Below are positions 36,802-43,699 of a stretch of 64,000 nt of DNA, piece after piece. The notes beneath the pieces are model-generated. The model had not been told where the DNA came from. It saw nothing but the letters and a program-made list of their open reading frames with translations, and did no database searches. Numbering within the stretch: position 1 is the first letter of the stretch; each line of letters starts with the position of its first letter. Source of the DNA: Neophaeotheca triangularis (lineage: Eukaryota); assembly GCA_054600435.1 (NCBI GenBank), contig BAAIJX010000002.1, positions 434,001 through 498,000 on the forward strand. Direction: 5' to 3'. The translations under genes and the position numbers were made by a program.

Positions 36802-38237
36802 TCATGTAACGTTGCCTATCACATTGGTGCGCCTCCTGCGAGCTTTCCCACCGCCTTCTGCCCGTTGAGACAAGACTTCTCGCAAGGCTGGGTCGTCGCG
36901 GTCTTTGTCGATGTGGTGTACTCTTACGTGCCTGTTTGTCTCGTTAGCCAACTCATATATGCCAGCTAGAATAGGATACGCGCAACGTACCTCTGAAGAT
37001 TGTCGGGCCGGGGGTACTTGTGTTCCCTGTCAGAGCAAAATGGACATACGTAGCCTGGGCTGTCATGGACCAGACCATGACGGATCATCTCGTTCTTCCT
37101 CTTGAAGCCCTTGCCACCTTCGCTCCGGGGACAATCGCGGACTGGGCAGTAGTGAGGCCGATTGGAGCTATGTACGTTCTTGTGCGAGCTGAGCAGATAC
37201 TGTGTCTGAAAAGGCGGCGCCGTACATCCTTCGAAGTCGCAAGGAAAACTGCCAGGGAACATACTCGGATTCTGTAGACCTGGTATTGGTGGTAACATTG
37301 GCCGAGGAGCGCCGTCTGAGGTGGGTGGCTGGGCCATGTCGATGGGTGTTGTGTGAGATGTACTACACCCTTCAGGACTAGAGCCGGTTTGAGTGAAGCT
37401 CTCGGCGGAAGAGTTTGCCGTTGGAAGCGAAGGGGGTCCATTTTCCACTGCGGGCGAAGGCCGGCGATCAGAATATGGACCAGCGTAGCTGGAATACTTT
37501 GTCGGCGAGCCGTACTGTGGGGCCACATCTGCGACTGTACTCGTCGGCGACCGGATAGTGTAAGGATTTTGGCTTGATGGGGACGTTTGCGAGCTTGGAG
37601 GATAAGGGTGGTTGGACAGGGTCGGCGATGCAGCGGTAGTGAATGTATGGCCTGGTTGCGCAGGATACGGCATGGCATTTCCCTGCTGTATCGCCACTTC
37701 CGCGAGCTCTTTCAACTGGTTCTGCGCTTGGATGCTTCCAGTGAACTGCTTGAAAGAAGGCAGGCGATCCAGCGTGGGCGATGTCGGAGATGAAGGTTGA
37801 AGGGCTGGTAGCTTCTCGGCGCCCCCGTCTGGCACTGCGACCCGATGTTTAAGCAGGCTGGGTGATATAGGCACTTCATCACTGGTGCCATGTTGTGGCT
37901 GTTGACCTTGCGCAGAAATTTCGGTTTCGATTGTGAGCCGTGGCGATGTCTGCGGGTTCTGTCTATCGGGCACGTCCTGGGCCGCAGACTCGCTGCGTGC
38001 GGCATCTACACTGTCTCTGACCGCCAAGTTCCGAGCTGCGGCTGCTGCTATGGACTGTACGTTATCTGCGATGTGAACTGGCGTATTGTTCGTTTCTGAG
38101 CCATTAGCAGTCTGTACACCGGATGAAATGTCGCCATCAGGCTTCGAACATTTCATGTCTGTCGTCGTCGTCTGGTCCTCGGTCGCAGGAGCTGTGTTTT
38201 GGTCTCCTGCCTCAACACCATCTACGGCATCTGACAT
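36802..38237 (-). CDS. C2H2 zinc-finger transcription factor (~458 aa; start may lie further upstream)
   Basis: Exons 38237-36991 and 36931-36802 (intron 36932-36990). Three fingers: CDFEGC..HKNVH, CPVRDC..HGLVH, CPFC..HVRVHH. Long S/P/T-rich N-terminus. Confidence 0.85.
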
Positions 38238-39855
38238 GGCGATACTGCTCCTGCCACAGCTGTTTGCTGACGTGGGATCTTCGTACAGGTCGTGAGCATG
38301 CGGCAGCAAATTTGGTACGAGAATCTCTAAGCCTGGGGTGACTTGACGTCTGCACCGCTTCGAGCTTGGTCTTGGCTCCGGTGACGAAGATGGCACGAAT
38401 GAGTCTCCAAATGCGGCTCTAAGGTCAGGCTTTACTTCCTGAAGTTGTGAAGTTTCACGGCAACACTCTTCTTCGTCGTCGTTGTAATAGTGCATACAGA
38501 ATGGCCAATTCAGCCACTTTTCCTGCCACGAACAGCAGAAGCTTGCGAGCCTCCTGCCTTTGGCAGGCGACGAGGAATCAAATCGGCCCTCTGGTAGCTT
38601 GGAAGGGATTCCCGACGAGCAATAGGCAAGGAAGCGTTGGCTCGCGTAATCTTTTCGTCCACGTTTCTCAGCCCTACTGGGGCCTTTCAACTTCTCGAGG
38701 CAGATTTTGGAAGGCCTTTGTTCCGAATGAAAATCTATGGAGCGTGCTGTTAGCCAATTGAAAGTTTTTTCCTTTTCCAAAGCGGTCGAAGCCTCAGTAA
38801 GAATGTCCTCCCTTGGTCGGTTCCGTAAATGCAGGTTTGTCTAGAATGTAGCGCTACCATTGGGATATTCGAGGCGACGCTTCAAATGGCAACAGACGAC
38901 CGATAATCGCCCAAGGCTTGGTACAATGCAGGTAGCTTGCAATGACACGAGTTTAACGAATGCAGGCCCGAGAGGTAGACGTACTGCAACTTTGGATTTG
39001 GAGTCCTGGAGCGTGCTTCAGCTCCGTCTCGAGTCTTGCGGTTCGAAGAGGACGTCAGGAAAACCCGATACAGCGCCTCTGACTGATGATGGGTGTGACG
39101 GGGATGTGATGGCGCAGGTCGTGGATGAAGCGTTGGTTGCAGGGCGTAAAGTAGTGGTATGAAAGGTATTGTAGGTGGAGGGCTAGACTCTCAATTTGAG
39201 TTGCACGATTGACAACCCAAGGTAAGCTTGTTGACGCTGGGGGAGCAGCTGGAGACTGGACTACGCGAAGCTCGCCTGCATACCGAGCTGTTGCTAGGTA
39301 CAGTATAGTATTGCAAGCCAAGGATGGATGAGGCGACAAGTAGTGAATGGCCAGAATGCACGGCTGCCTATGTACGTAGGAGGTACTACAAGTCTTCCTT
39401 ACCAACTTACTGAGTGAGTTCTTCAAGAAGGTATCGTATCTTGAGGCTGAGCGGAGGTTCAAGCTTACCCGGTCGTGCTTTACTCGGCTAAACCCGAGCT
39501 CGTGGCCTAGGCCCCCGCTCTTCGACAGCTTACAGTAGGTAGGTGTGCATACCTCTCGTCATGTGATTCACTTGCTTTTCCGTCAACCTGCTAAGGTACT
39601 GACAATTGGCTCTGTTAAGGTAGCGTAATCGAACTTGCAAGAGCCTACAAGCAGAGGCGGACGCGTTTGCAGGAGGCCACGGTATGAGCTAGTCGAGTTC
39701 CTGGTTGGCTTAACCAGCCCAACGTTCATGACGCGATAGATGAGTCGCACGACGACGACTGATCAGCATCCATATCCGTACCTAATGCATTATTGAGGCC
39801 TTCTTGGTTTCTCCATCACCTATCGAACAATCTGATTTGGGTTCCTTGCCCCTGA

Positions 39856-41364
39856 ATGCTAATTGCCACCGCTGCGGGGCCTAGGAGTCGCCTCGCTCGA
39901 TCAGCACAACAGGCGTCTAAGGCGTCTTGCACTGTAGCTCACCGTCTGAGAACTGAATTTCGACATCATCCCCAGCTCAATACTATGAAACGAGTCAGCA
40001 CGTCGACAGCTCCATCGTCCCCCGCAAAGAAGGCCAAGGCTCAGGTTCCCGAGTATCACGCAACTCCTTCAATCAAGGAGGAGGATGGCAGCATACAATG
40101 GCCTGCGCCAGCGGCCAAAATGGAGCGTACCAGGCATTTCATCCGAGAGTGCGTCGGGGCCCAACAGAAGACGCTGATAGTGCCTGACAAAGATGCCGAT
40201 GGCTTGTCTTCTGGAGCCATCCTGCGACACACGCTGATACTGATGGGACTGCCTGACCAACTGATACAGGTCCATCTTCTCAGTAAAGGGAACACCGTGC
40301 ACAGCGCGGCCGAACGAGAACTGATGGAACGCCACAACCCGAAGTATATCTTCGTTCTCGATCAGGGGTCGCGAGCTTCAGAGCCTCTAGTTGAGTCTGA
40401 TCACAGGAGTATGATCATTGACCATCACTACGCTACATCAAACGATTTCCCAAAAGGCGCAGAATTCATAACAGCATGCAACTCACCACCGGTTGCCACC
40501 TCGGCCTTGTTGACGTATCTGCTTTGCGAACCATTGCATCCCCATGTCAGAGCCAAGTGTGCATGGCTATGCGTTGTCGGTACTCATGGAGATCTCGGCA
40601 ACACGTTGAAATGGGAGCCCCCCTTTCCCGACATGAAAGAACCGCTGAAGAAGTACACCAAAAAGGTCCTCAACGACGTCGTGTCACTCGTCAATGCGCC
40701 GAGACGAACCGCCACCTACAACGTCCGCTCAGCCTGGGATGCGCTATGCGAAACCGACGAGCCGGCTTCTGTACTAAAGAACCCCAAGCTACTAGAGGCT
40801 CGACGCGAAGTCAACGCGGAAGTGGAACGGTGCACTCACGCTGCGCCCAAGTTTTCCTCGGATGGCAAAATCGCCGTCTTCCGAATCAGAAGCGAGGCTC
40901 AGGTCCACCCTGTTATAGCGACGCGCTGGTCCGGCCACCTGCAAAGCAAAGCGCTCGAAATTGTGCTCGTAGCAAATGAGGGATACCTGCCGGACAAGGT
41001 CAACTTTTCGTGTAGAATCCCTCGATGTGCGAGGAACCGTGATCCCCCTGTTGACATCATCCAAAGCCTGCGGGCATACGCTAGTTTGCCCGATGTCAAG
41101 TCTGAAGATGGGAACACGGAAAAATCTGAGAAGCGGCCGCTCCTTGAGCGTATAGGCGAGGATTTTGCACGTGGTCACGTGCAGGCTAGTGGAGGCATTG
41201 TGGCTACTGATGAGTTCGAGGAACTGATGCGGATCATGCAGATTGGGGTCAAGGCTTCCAAGAAAGAGGGCGAGGATACGAGTCCCAAGAAGAAAAAGCA
41301 GGGGTTAGATGCTGGGCAGACAAATACCCTTACCGGCTACTTTAAGAAAGCGCCTAAAAGCTGA
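39856..41364 (+). CDS. DHH-family phosphoesterase, RecJ-like (502 aa from ATG 39856, or 459 aa from ATG 39985)
   Basis: Intronless ORF. Motif I PDKDADG, II VLDQG, III IIDHH, IV VGTHGD, and DHHA1 RGHVQASGG. Confidence 0.85.
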   Translation: MLIATAAGPRSRLARSAQQASKASCTVAHRLRTEFRHHPQLNTMKRVSTSTAPSSPAKKAKAQVPEYHATPSIKEEDGSIQWPAPAAKMERTRHFIRECVGAQQKTLIVPDKDADGLSSGAILRHTLILMGLPDQLIQVHLLSKGNTVHSAAERELMERHNPKYIFVLDQGSRASEPLVESDHRSMIIDHHYATSNDFPKGAEFITACNSPPVATSALLTYLLCEPLHPHVRAKCAWLCVVGTHGDLGNTLKWEPPFPDMKEPLKKYTKKVLNDVVSLVNAPRRTATYNVRSAWDALCETDEPASVLKNPKLLEARREVNAEVERCTHAAPKFSSDGKIAVFRIRSEAQVHPVIATRWSGHLQSKALEIVLVANEGYLPDKVNFSCRIPRCARNRDPPVDIIQSLRAYASLPDVKSEDGNTEKSEKRPLLERIGEDFARGHVQASGGIVATDEFEELMRIMQIGVKASKKEGEDTSPKKKKQGLDAGQTNTLTGYFKKAPKS

Positions 41365-42034: not shown

Positions 42035-43699
42035 TCACCGCTCGCTGTGCTCCGGACACCTTCTGACTACCCACTTCTCCCAAGCCTTGCGCTTAGAGTT
42101 ACTGACCAAGTAGCCGTCGTCCCCCAAATCTTCTGCAGTATCGGGGTAGCTGCGTCCGTCACAATTACACCACGGCGCCGAGGCAGGTGTGCCAGGAGAA
42201 AGCGGCGGGAAGTCCATCTCGTGCGCGTCAGGCCCATGCTCGGAATCGGAAAACTCACTACCAATGTCAGAATCGGTACTGTGGTGAAAGCTGCCGTTTG
42301 TGGAGTCCGGGTAGGAGCCATTTGTCTGGTGTTGGTAGTTGCTCGGTCCGGCATAGGGGTATTCGTTATCAACATCATCACTTTGCTCGATATCATCGTC
42401 GCTGTCGCTGTCGCTCTCGCTTTCTCCTGGAGGTAGATCATCTGGCACTTCCGCGCCTGCAACCAGCCACTCTTCGTCGAAGTGGGCCGCGTACCCTATT
42501 CGACGCAGACTAACCCAGTCCAGCCTGTACATAGAGTCCCTCAAGGCTCCCAATACATCCTTCCATTTACTGCCCTCTTTCAGCAACACATCTCTGAGGC
42601 GAAGCCCTTTTAGTCTCTCGCGATGTCTCAAAGCCAAGTTAATGATCTCCTCTGCGTCCAATCGCCACCCTTGGACGCCAAAAGCAACCAGTTTCGGCCA
42701 AGTCACGCCGTGGAAGACATCTTCGAGCGGTAGACTTAACGGCCTGTGCATAGGGAAGCCCACATGCACCATTTGCATGTTAATGGCGGCGGAAAACACG
42801 GTACGGAACAAGGGTGACAATTCTTTCATCTTCTGATTGAGATCGCTGCCATCGTCGAAATGGAGCACCAAGCAAGTCAGTCTTTCCGCCAAGGTAGGCA
42901 GTGATCGAGGTTTGTGCAAAGCTAGAAACTCGGCGCTCTGTGGACTCAGCATGGGCGATGAAAAGCGCGTCCAAGGAACGTCGGCTGCGAGTAGAGCAGC
43001 GCCTATCGTCTGCGATCCATGAGAGCAAGCGGGCGCCCATTCAAGATGCCAGAGGGCACTCGCATCGTCGTGCTGGCGGATCCACGAGAGAAGGGCATTG
43101 TCCTCTTCGTCCTGAACACGCAGGATTTGGACATGTTGGAGACTCGTGAAGCCTGCAACTGCCTTTTTCAGGACCCGAACATCTTCCTTGGATTCCACAA
43201 TCTGCCGCTGCTCCAGCGCCTTTCGCGTGACGCTGCCGAGGTCGAAGCCCGGTACGCCGTTTTCCAATTGAGGTAGCAAGAATCGTGTTTGTTGCCCCGC
43301 TGCTTGAAGTTAGTACGCGCTTTTGCATCTGATCCATGCCACCCACTCACCATGGCCGTAGAAATACGGGACCAAGTAGCTGAACTTTTTGACTTGCTGG
43401 GCAAGGTGCGGCCAGTCGGCTAGCTGCTCAAGCTTCTCCAATCCGCGTTTGGAGAACCTCGCCGCCACTCGCGCGTACTGCAACGGGGCTCCTACGGCGG
43501 AGAAACGCTTGCAGCTTGCTCGAAAACTACCGACATCTTTGATGGAGCCGCGAGTGGATGGCTGTGGGTATTCGAAGCTTTCCACCGAAAGAAAACGTCT
43601 GCGGTCCACAGGAACTGTTTTGTCGGGGTCCGGCTCGATCTGGTCAAGGATGAGTCGGAGAAGCTCGTTGGATAGCTTCAATATTGGTACTGAGGTCAT
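42035..43699 (-). CDS. F-box-like fungal protein (~537 aa)
   Basis: Exons 43699-43351 and 43299-42035 (intron 43300-43350). N-terminal ILKLSNELLRLILDQI...FRASCKRF F-box-like pattern, LRR-like middle, acidic tail, terminal WCNC...RCPEH. The 3' end is slightly uncertain because a GTGAGC overlaps the stop. Confidence 0.7.

Follow-up and report, generated by a model that had tools for sequence, protein, structure and literature searches.

A probably overlooked RecJ-like DHH/DHHA1 nuclease family of fungi and green algae with a clamp-binding-like tail

Eukaryotic relatives of the bacterial exonuclease RecJ are generally discussed as the inactive replisome subunit Cdc45, a nuclease-dead RecJ relative, and the Prune/PPX enzymes. 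A phylogenomic study of RecJ and Cdc45 uses only Cdc45 and Prune as eukaryotic DHH proteins, the string 'fung' being absent from it (PMC3307487), and a 2026 review of fungal DNA repair contains no mention of 'RecJ' or 'DHH' (PMC13451438). In Deinococcus radiodurans, RecJ takes part in long-patch base excision repair (BER) (PMC7515722). The nucleotide phosphate is held in this enzyme (DrRecJ) by Arg109, Arg280 (motif V), Ser371 and Arg373 (motif VI); kcat/Km falls roughly 9- to 13-fold with the substitutions R109A, R373A and H397A and about 2-fold with S371A, and the 5'-phosphate pocket is given as the cause of the 5'-3' polarity (PMC4846377). Here, we analyzed a 64,000-nucleotide stretch of the Neophaeotheca triangularis genome (the window; assembly GCA_054600435.1, contig BAAIJX010000002.1, positions 434,001 to 498,000 of the forward strand) and describe a gene at 39985..41364 (+ strand) whose product is best read, from its sequence, as a eukaryotic member of a distinct, uncharacterized RecJ-like DHH/DHHA1 nuclease branch. 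The family probably represents a DNA-repair nuclease that has been overlooked in fungi and green algae, the repair role being probable because its bacterial cousins adjoin excision-repair genes. A search of openly accessible articles turned up no description of a RecJ-like or DHH nuclease from fungi or algae and none of a link between UvdE and DHH proteins, and a RecJ-like nuclease family with an apparent eukaryotic, clamp-tailed branch is described in none of the papers found.

The catalytic core and its RecJ kinship

The preliminary description of this DNA, made from its letters, had proposed a catalytically intact DHH/DHHA1 enzyme, and translation bore this out: the gene is intronless and forms a single uninterrupted open reading frame (ORF) of 459 residues plus stop with zero internal stops, and every string quoted earlier lies where it had been placed. 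Motif I, DKDADG (residues 68-73, 40186..40203), contributes the metal-binding D70 and D72 and aligns with DyDADG of Thermus thermophilus RecJ; motif II, LDQGS (residues 125-129, 40357..40371), contains D126, motif III is the DHH triad itself (D146, H147 and H148; 40420..40428), and motif IV, GTHGDLG (residues 199-205, 40579..40599), contains D203. The RecJ-specific motifs V (NAxxR), VI (SxR) and VII are also present, as NAPRR (40693..40707, with N237 and R241), FSCR (41005..41016, with R344) and the DHHA1 motif RGHVQASGG (residues 396-404, 41170..41196, with H398, A401, G403 and G404). Across an alignment of 48 eukaryotic and bacterial family members, D70, D72, G73, D126, G128, D146, H147, H148, P156, P169 and D203 are invariant, as are N237, R241, P288, W315, L319, N331, R344, H398, A401, G403 and G404. 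The full two-metal site is thus retained in an enzyme that is intact, apparently active and under selection, and the window gene is almost certainly a real gene for an active DHH enzyme. An artefactual ORF was rejected in view of hundreds of conserved homologues, and a nuclease-dead scaffold like Cdc45 was rejected because every catalytic residue is invariant.

Hidden Markov model searches for the two domains gave a divided answer, as the Pfam DHH model (PF01368) matched above its cut-off (E 6.2e-8, 33.4 bits vs cut-off 28.1) whereas the DHHA1 model (PF02272) gave no match to the window protein at E<=1. The DHHA1 domain is supported instead by fold alignment up to residue ~420 with RecJ, PAP phosphatase and NrnA chains, and by the GHxxAxGG motif.

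When a family profile was compared with the PDB, 16 distinct sequences matched at E<=0.01. The best was T. thermophilus RecJ (E 1.8e-15), with Staphylococcus aureus RecJ (3.4e-14) and D. radiodurans RecJ (6.5e-12) also in the bacterial RecJ range of 1.8e-15 to 6.5e-12; archaeal RecJ and GAN chains covered 2.1e-12 to 5e-9, including Pyrococcus furiosus RecJ (2.1e-12) and GAN (2.6e-12). Chains of the DhhP, PAP phosphatase and NrnA type were much weaker, at 1.1e-6 to 4.3e-3 (DhhP, 1.1e-6; Methanothermococcus thermolithotrophicus PAP phosphatase, 8A8K, 8.9e-5; TmPDE, 7.2e-4; a mycobacterial NrnA homologue, 4.3e-3). Kinship with the DHHA2 branch (Prune/PPX1) was limited to the N-terminal domain of a family II pyrophosphatase (7.4e-3), the last of the 16 matches, and DHHA2-type enzymes were not among the 50 fold-comparison rows listed.

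Against T. thermophilus RecJ, the aligned stretch starts at motif I (DkDaDGlss vs DYDADGLTG) and continues through the linker, where NAPRR is paired with INAASR, and a low-scoring second segment pairs GHkeAsGG with GHKEAAG. The motif VI pairing likewise comes from a low-scoring second segment, in which FSCR corresponds to GSAR of P. furiosus RecJ. With R241, S342-x-R344 and H398 standing in for the motif V, VI and VII residues of RecJ, whose mutation impairs DrRecJ (PMC4846377), the family is predicted to keep the RecJ phosphate pocket. An AlphaFold2 model built from the family alignment had a mean predicted local distance difference test score (pLDDT) of 90.4 and a predicted template modeling score (pTM) of 0.87, with residues 1-7 and 440-448 under 50, and the top Foldseek ranks were archaeal RecJ, bacterial RecJ and PAP phosphatase, so that the modeled fold by itself does not distinguish an exonuclease from a pAp phosphatase. 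The M. thermolithotrophicus PAP phosphatase is described as an 'exonuclease-derived' enzyme (PMC10322725).

Despite this kinship, the window protein is not a RecJ orthologue. It scored 35.9 bits against the RecJ equivalog model TIGR00644 (cut-off 396.9), with only the N-terminal part matched, and it stayed below the cut-offs of the curated NCBIfam models NF053576 (archaeal RecJ; 37.2 vs 360), NF040701 (19.6 vs 550) and NF053575 (GAN; 13.2 vs 850). Bacterial family members reached 20.6-32.2 bits against TIGR00644, and a canonical RecJ (483-530 bits) was present in all three family-bearing bacterial genomes examined (G001, G042 and G201, Acidobacteriota). Since these genomes also hold full-length RecJ, the two proteins have paralogous functions and are not substitutes for one another. 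In the model, the folded part stops at ~420 and the last 40 residues have low pLDDT, and the OB fold and C-terminal domain of RecJ are not present.

Conserved tail and basic patches

A disordered basic linker ending in Qxx(x)LxxYF followed by lysines is a typical module of PCNA clients, and the textbook signature of PCNA binding is Qxx[LIVM]xxFF at the extreme C-terminus with basic residues after it. In the window protein, the last DHHA1 helix is followed by a low-confidence basic linker (41197..41316), along which pLDDT drops from residue 420 (82, 57, 48) and which includes the basic patch SPKKKKQ (residues 433-439, 41281..41301). The protein then ends in QTNTLTGYF and KKAPKS (QTNTLTGYFKKAPKS; residues 445-459, 41317..41361), a motif resembling the PCNA-interacting protein (PIP) box. 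In the AlphaFold2 model this motif occupies the extreme C-terminus (pLDDT 48-57) with a short helix at residues 449-452, SPKKKK preceding it and KK following it. A second basic patch, SPAKKAK (residues 12-18, 40018..40038), lies near the N-terminus and resembles a nuclear localization signal (NLS) with an SPxK site of the cyclin-dependent kinase type, a presumed function.

The tail motif was sought within the last 45 residues of 120 listed close homologues, and Qxxx[LIVM]xx[FYW][FYW] was present in 119 of them, the exception reading ...QKNTLASCFGK. The preliminary description had called the PIP match imperfect, with the glutamine offset by one, and this was confirmed both for the window motif, which has three residues between Q and L, and for the 119 homologues that share the same offset. 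The basic SPxKK patches singled out with the tail are conserved as well: [ST]Px[KR] was found in 108/120 tails and a basic cluster in 105/120, and among the 66 homologues with a complete N-terminus a basic cluster was present in 64 and [ST]Px[KR] in 30. The other 54 of the 120 start at or after the DHH domain, come mostly from metagenome-type sources and may be truncated gene calls.

Beyond close homologues, 150 listed representatives were compared, 72 of which lack the DHHA1 motif pattern and remained unclassed, many being far shorter than full length. The 78 classed representatives comprise 29 of bacterial type, with tails of <40 residues and the motif in none, and 49 with long tails, where the offset motif occurs in 23, the canonical form Qxx[LIVM]xx[FYW][FYWLM] in 10, LxxFGF in four, LxxFF only in two and no pattern in 10, although several of these last still read QKNTLEGWL, QKNTLDGWL or QRNTLDGFL. 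Distant eukaryotic members thus carry canonical boxes, as in Cryptotrichosporon (QKGIQQFF), Pleurotus (QRKIKDFF), Saitoella (QKRLDQFF), Sorochytrium (QKRLESFF) and Chlamydomonas (QRKLTDFM), so that the check on tail conservation came out positive. The linker from the DHHA1 motif to Q measures 35-57 residues (median 40), and a canonical or offset motif arose in 91 of 39,600 shuffled tails (0.23%). This comparative pattern is what a functional motif would show, and PCNA binding by the tail is, on present sequence evidence, somewhat more probable than its absence. Eukaryotes would accordingly differ from bacteria in having added an N-terminal basic, NLS-like segment and a disordered basic C-terminal linker ending in a PIP-type motif. 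In P0143, P0164, P0152, P0197 and P0235, which include chytrids and the green alga Myrmecia, the tail reads LxxFGF with a glycine between the aromatics, which appears to be a lineage-specific variant, and the tail of Planoprotostelium reads TLDKLGFF.

Family range and bacterial gene neighborhoods

A word-index search with 7999 scored candidates returned 1232 homologues at E<=1e-3, and an exhaustive search of 50%-identity representatives gave 723 matches, 125 of them at 1e-30 or better. The closest named homologue is from Zasmidium cellare (75% identity), many proteins of Dothideomycetes and Sordariomycetes are 60-75% identical to the window protein, and the named matches among the best 120 of the 1232 all bear fungal names except one labeled Quercus suber. 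Ascomycete members come from Dothideomycetes, Sordariomycetes, Leotiomycetes, lichen-forming Lecanoromycetes, Chaetothyriales, Pezizomycetes, Orbiliomycetes and Saitoella (Taphrinomycotina), and basidiomycete members from Agaricomycetes, Dacrymycetes and Tremellomycetes; chytrids (Spizellomyces, Phlyctochytrium and Fimicolochytrium), the blastoclad Sorochytrium, the amoebozoan Planoprotostelium and the green algae Chlamydomonas schloesseri and Myrmecia bisecta are represented too. Schizosaccharomyces, Neurospora and Aspergillus had no entry among the best 120 of 313 matches to a Saitoella query, which does not amount to absence. In databases, the eukaryotic members are named 'DHH phosphoesterase', 'DDH domain-containing protein' or 'hypothetical protein', and rarely 'single-stranded-DNA-specific exonuclease'. 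An ESM Atlas look-up returned Ascomycota DHH clusters, one mostly archaeal DHH cluster (at 0.93) and nothing else. The bacterial-type relatives have ~350 residues, are 29-33% identical to the window protein, do not have either terminal extension, and come from Myxococcaceae, Acidobacteriota (Vicinamibacteraceae) and metagenome contigs.

A tree of 67 rows (29 named eukaryotic members from several hundred, 35 bacterial members and three canonical RecJ proteins as outgroup) was calculated by a quick method from 361 of 1211 columns, with support given solely by the Shimodaira-Hasegawa-like approximate likelihood ratio test (SH-aLRT). The whole family was separated from RecJ with support 100, and the 29 eukaryotic rows formed one clade (SH-aLRT 99) within an unresolved comb of bacterial lineages, the root resting only on the long RecJ outgroup branch. 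Within the eukaryotic clade, shallow groups agree with taxonomy, and deep branching is poorly resolved. The window protein falls with Zasmidium, Zymoseptoria and Hortaea, in agreement with its other similarities, which makes a Mycosphaerellales-like ascomycete the probable source. These results bear on the earlier suggestion of horizontal acquisition. A recent transfer from a prokaryote into this fungus would suit the lack of an intron and the fact that the closest non-eukaryotic relatives are bacterial, at 29-33% identity. It is nevertheless extremely improbable given the 1232 homologues, whose named members among the 120 listed are nearly all fungal, the spread through Basidiomycota, Taphrinomycotina, Pezizomycetes, chytrids, a blastoclad, Amoebozoa and Chlorophyta, the single eukaryotic clade, the ordinary fungal genes on the flanks and the even G+C. 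A transfer peculiar to this fungus was ruled out by the single eukaryotic clade and broad family range, and what is left of the suggestion is a possible ancient bacterial origin of the whole eukaryotic clade. In addition, some fungal members lack DxDxDG and/or DHH together with the tail motif (P0132 and P0302 from Hypoxylon and Nemania, P0170 from Sphaerosporella, P0267 and P0315 from Sistotremastrum, and P0192 from Tirmania). P0132 has an intact Xylaria protein as its tree neighbor, its own branch being the longer, and the branch of P0267 is very long; these proteins may be catalytically dead paralogues or badly modeled genes.

The gene neighborhoods of the bacterial relatives were compared at 25 loci, four from genomes (L001 in G001, L002 in G002, L005 in G042 and L007 in G201) and 21 on metagenome contigs (L009-L029). 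A locus search with one Myxococcaceae protein yielded only two loci, both from Acidobacteriota, and the comparison therefore includes no Myxococcus locus. UvdE (PF03851) is a neighbor at 10 of them. It is divergent and ~40-120 nt away in L001, L009, L011, L015, L022, L026 and L029 (L011, L015 and L029 being cut by a contig end), co-directional and ~225 nt downstream in L007, and 2.7 kb from the DHH gene in L002, and in L027 (7863-10051) the co-directional DHH and UvdE ORFs overlap by 4 nt. The neighboring UvdE is the sole copy in G001, G002 and G201 (genomes of 4-6 Mb), no UvdE was found anywhere in the G042 genome, and UvdE-linked members occur in several parts of the bacterial tree. Few Acidobacteriota carry the family: of 301 sampled genomes, three have it, 20 have UvdE and two have both (expected 0.2, hypergeometric p 0.012).

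A second arrangement, seen at six of the 25 loci (L016-L019, L021 and L024), has genes for Fpg/Nei, ATP-dependent DNA ligase and DHH following one another on the same strand. Two of these loci, L016 and L024, were scanned, and in each the three reading frames overlap; the overlaps at both junctions of L016 (L016:5232-8981), together with the one in L027, suggest translational coupling. P0221, a predicted 919-residue protein on a 5.6-kb Logan contig, consists of a complete ATP-dependent ligase, with its N-terminal, adenylation and OB domains, joined to the DHH core, and is sister in the tree to the clade in which the ligase and DHH genes overlap; the fusion may be genuine or the product of a frameshift in the gene call. 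Overall, the bacterial relatives are coupled by genome context to enzymes that start or finish excision repair (UvdE; Fpg/Nei and ATP-dependent ligase), and both the UvdE-DHH and the Nei-ligase-DHH linkages are new in this analysis.

Returning to the window, the reading frame is open upstream of 39985 as far as an ATG at 39856, and the in-frame extension thus gained (39856..39984, +) is probably 5' leader and not coding, as its 43 residues have no counterpart in homologues. The ATG at 39985 is the likely start codon because homologues begin at a corresponding MKR(K), their N-termini reading MKRK...KKxR..VPEYHLTP. The following element, PEYHATP ... WPAP (40048..40110), leads into the first DHH-domain helix; VPEYHLTP and WPAP are alignment consensus, and WPxx occurs in some bacterial members too. 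The absence of introns fits the collinear alignment of annotated fungal homologues (460-469 aa), which are equal in length to the window protein. Two 151-nt contigs from a polyA aquatic metatranscriptome matched at 39889-40039 and 40126-40276 with 99-100% likeness, the former beginning 96 nt upstream of the proposed ATG (with A>G at 39980) and lending weak support to the 5' leader; the run held 9% of the sampled words, and two contigs are too little to define the transcript, its ends or the absence of introns. The neighboring genes are ordinary fungal ones (WSC, AMP-binding, aldehyde dehydrogenase, DnaJ, isocitrate dehydrogenase, acyl-CoA dehydrogenase, WD40 and SUR7) and G+C is even throughout. 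No PCNA gene was found among the 21 larger window ORFs scanned, and the long flanking ORFs at 36966-38780 (-, 604 codons) and 42035-43279 (-, 414 codons) had no Pfam match at E<=1e-3.

Proposed function, alternatives and comparison with known systems

That the protein acts on DNA in repair is fairly likely. It is likely to take nucleotides off a DNA end in a Mn2+/Mg2+-dependent reaction, with 5'-phosphorylated single-stranded DNA as the most likely substrate, because the core (residues ~40-420) keeps the two-metal site and a RecJ-type pocket, and the chances that it works in the 5'-3' direction are about even. A more specific proposal, which we regard as evenly poised, is a RecJ-type exonuclease that processes DNA ends in nick-initiated excision repair, working in the nucleus and tethered to PCNA. 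The protein would be imported into the nucleus and held on PCNA where a nick from UVDE, or from an apurinic/apyrimidinic (AP) endonuclease or lyase, has opened a repair patch, and there it would trim the damaged or displaced 5' strand (lesion, deoxyribose phosphate or flap) before ligase seals the nick. The NLS-like patches and PIP-type tail would in this way bring a bacterial-type activity to PCNA at a eukaryotic repair patch. The nick made by UvdE lies 5' of the lesion and leaves a 3'-OH, after which strand displacement synthesis produces a damage-bearing 5' flap that is removed by Rad2/FEN1 before ligation (PMC13451438). Broader still, and at present a tentative and rather doubtful idea, would be a dedicated PCNA-tethered RecJ-type 5' exonuclease of fungi, some amoebozoans and green algae, derived from a bacterial UvdE-DHH/Nei-ligase-DHH module and serving UVDE repair and long-patch BER or nucleotide incision repair beside or instead of FEN1/Rad2 and Exo1.

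Several observations weigh against a PCNA-tethered repair exonuclease linked to UVDE. The window protein does not match the canonical Qxx[LIVM]xx[FY][FY] pattern, the aromatic pair gives way to W-L, F-L, C-V or F-G-F in some members, and PIP-like motifs are promiscuous, binding other partners as well. Among the bacterial loci, 15/25 have no adjoining UvdE, and 9/25 have no repair neighbor; of these nine, L010 alone has long flanks (8 kb each side), the rest being short or truncated by the end of a contig. The six Fpg/Nei-ligase loci include four that hardly differ from one another, the three placed in the tree (L016, L017 and L024) forming one clade. Because 18 of the 20 UvdE-bearing Acidobacteriota genomes do not have the family, the DHH protein is an optional partner of UvdE and not a fixed or obligate one. 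In the 64-kb window itself, UvdE was absent by tblastn with two bacterial UvdE proteins (best E 1.8), and the literature search found no biochemical, genetic or localization data for any family member, including a tie to PCNA or UVDE. The product of UvdE has a dimer-bearing 5' end, in contrast to the RecJ site, which encloses a single nucleoside (PMC4846377), and direct removal of the lesion by a RecJ-type site is for this reason not obvious.

Alternative functions were weighed against the same evidence. The conserved tail might bind a partner other than PCNA (e.g., Rev1, Mlh1, the 9-1-1 clamp or an import or degradation factor), or the enzyme might serve replication through removal of Okazaki primers. 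The promiscuity of PIP-like motifs suits another partner, as do the offset glutamine of Pezizomycotina, the LxxFGF of chytrids and green algae and the LxGWL of some basidiomycetes, and archaeal RecJ/GAN proteins do act at the replisome (PMC3307487; PMC3675489). However, several lineages carry in the same orthologous tail a canonical Qxx[LIVM]xxFF with basic residues at the extreme C-terminus, and the bacterial gene contexts are those of repair and not of replication genes, so that we consider such roles unlikely. Comparably unlikely is a PCNA-tethered enzyme that cleans DNA 3' ends (a 3'-phosphatase, 3'-diesterase or 3'-5' exonuclease), preparing the ends left by Fpg/Nei lyases or at damaged nicks. 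Nei-type lyases leave 3'-phosphates, the Fpg/Nei-ligase-DHH strings and the ligase fusion suit an enzyme that makes ends ligatable, and the Nei-ligase context is fitted better by 3' cleaning than the UvdE context is. Conversely, UvdE is the commoner neighbor (10/25 vs 6/25) and leaves a 3'-OH that needs no cleaning (PMC13451438), the conserved set of R241, S342, R344 and H398 matches the pocket to which RecJ owes its 5'-3' polarity, and the best profile score was obtained with a bacterial 5'-3' RecJ.

A nucleotide or oligonucleotide phosphoesterase of the NrnA/DhhP type (nanoRNase, pAp phosphatase or cyclic-dinucleotide phosphodiesterase) with no direct role on DNA would agree with the fold tie to PAP phosphatase, with the frequent occurrence of such activities among two-domain DHH/DHHA1 proteins of this size, and with the automatic name, nanoRNase/pAp phosphatase, that the Joint Genome Institute (JGI) gives to two metagenome members. 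Yet the profile prefers RecJ over DhhP/NrnA-type chains by ~nine orders of magnitude, the bacterial members lie beside genes for DNA repair, one of them being a predicted fusion with a DNA ligase, and NLS-like patches and a PIP-type tail have no evident use for a small-molecule enzyme, which makes this reading the least probable of the three. A repair exonuclease brought to PCNA by its tail therefore remains the preferred interpretation, at the even standing given above.

The window gene appears to encode a widespread, strongly conserved and apparently active RecJ-type enzyme with nuclear-targeting-like and clamp-binding-like features, and the bacterial neighborhoods (UvdE, Fpg/Nei, ATP-dependent ligase and one predicted ligase fusion) lead to a concrete pathway assignment. 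If the proposal is true, fungi, many of them plant-associated and extremotolerant, and green algae would have an extra nuclease for UVDE-initiated and long-patch excision repair, and the ~350-residue bacterial DHH proteins now automatically annotated as 'single-stranded-DNA-specific exonuclease', 'DHH family phosphoesterase' or 'hypothetical protein' would gain a function. On the broader and more doubtful reading, eukaryotes would have kept two RecJ relatives, the catalytically dead Cdc45 for replication and, in many lineages, a live one for repair.

Among known systems, bacterial RecJ (T. thermophilus 1IR6/2ZXO, D. radiodurans 5F54-5F56) is the best profile match, sharing all of motifs I-VII as invariant features, and likewise acts in excision repair, namely long-patch BER (PMC7515722). 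The window protein differs in representing the core only, its model aligning to DrRecJ residues 50-419 of ~700, and in having eukaryote-specific N- and C-terminal extensions. Compared with archaeal RecJ and GAN, it falls below the curated cut-offs and its nearest relatives are bacterial, not archaeal, and unlike Cdc45 it retains all catalytic residues. The PAP phosphatase 8A8K and the NrnA/DhhP-type nanoRNases are weak by profile (8.9e-5 and 1.1e-6 to 4.3e-3, respectively) and belong to contexts of sulfur or nucleotide metabolism (PMC10322725), in contrast to the UvdE, Fpg/Nei and ligase neighbors of the bacterial family members. In the alternative excision repair that UVDE initiates in Schizosaccharomyces pombe and Neurospora, the step proposed for this enzyme would be that of Rad2/FEN1 after the nick (PMC13451438). 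With FEN1/Rad27/Rad2, Exo1 and Apn2 the window protein shares the overall plan of a nuclease core and a disordered basic tail ending in a Qxx(x)LxxYF-type motif, but it is of a different fold and catalytic family, with its motif offset by one.

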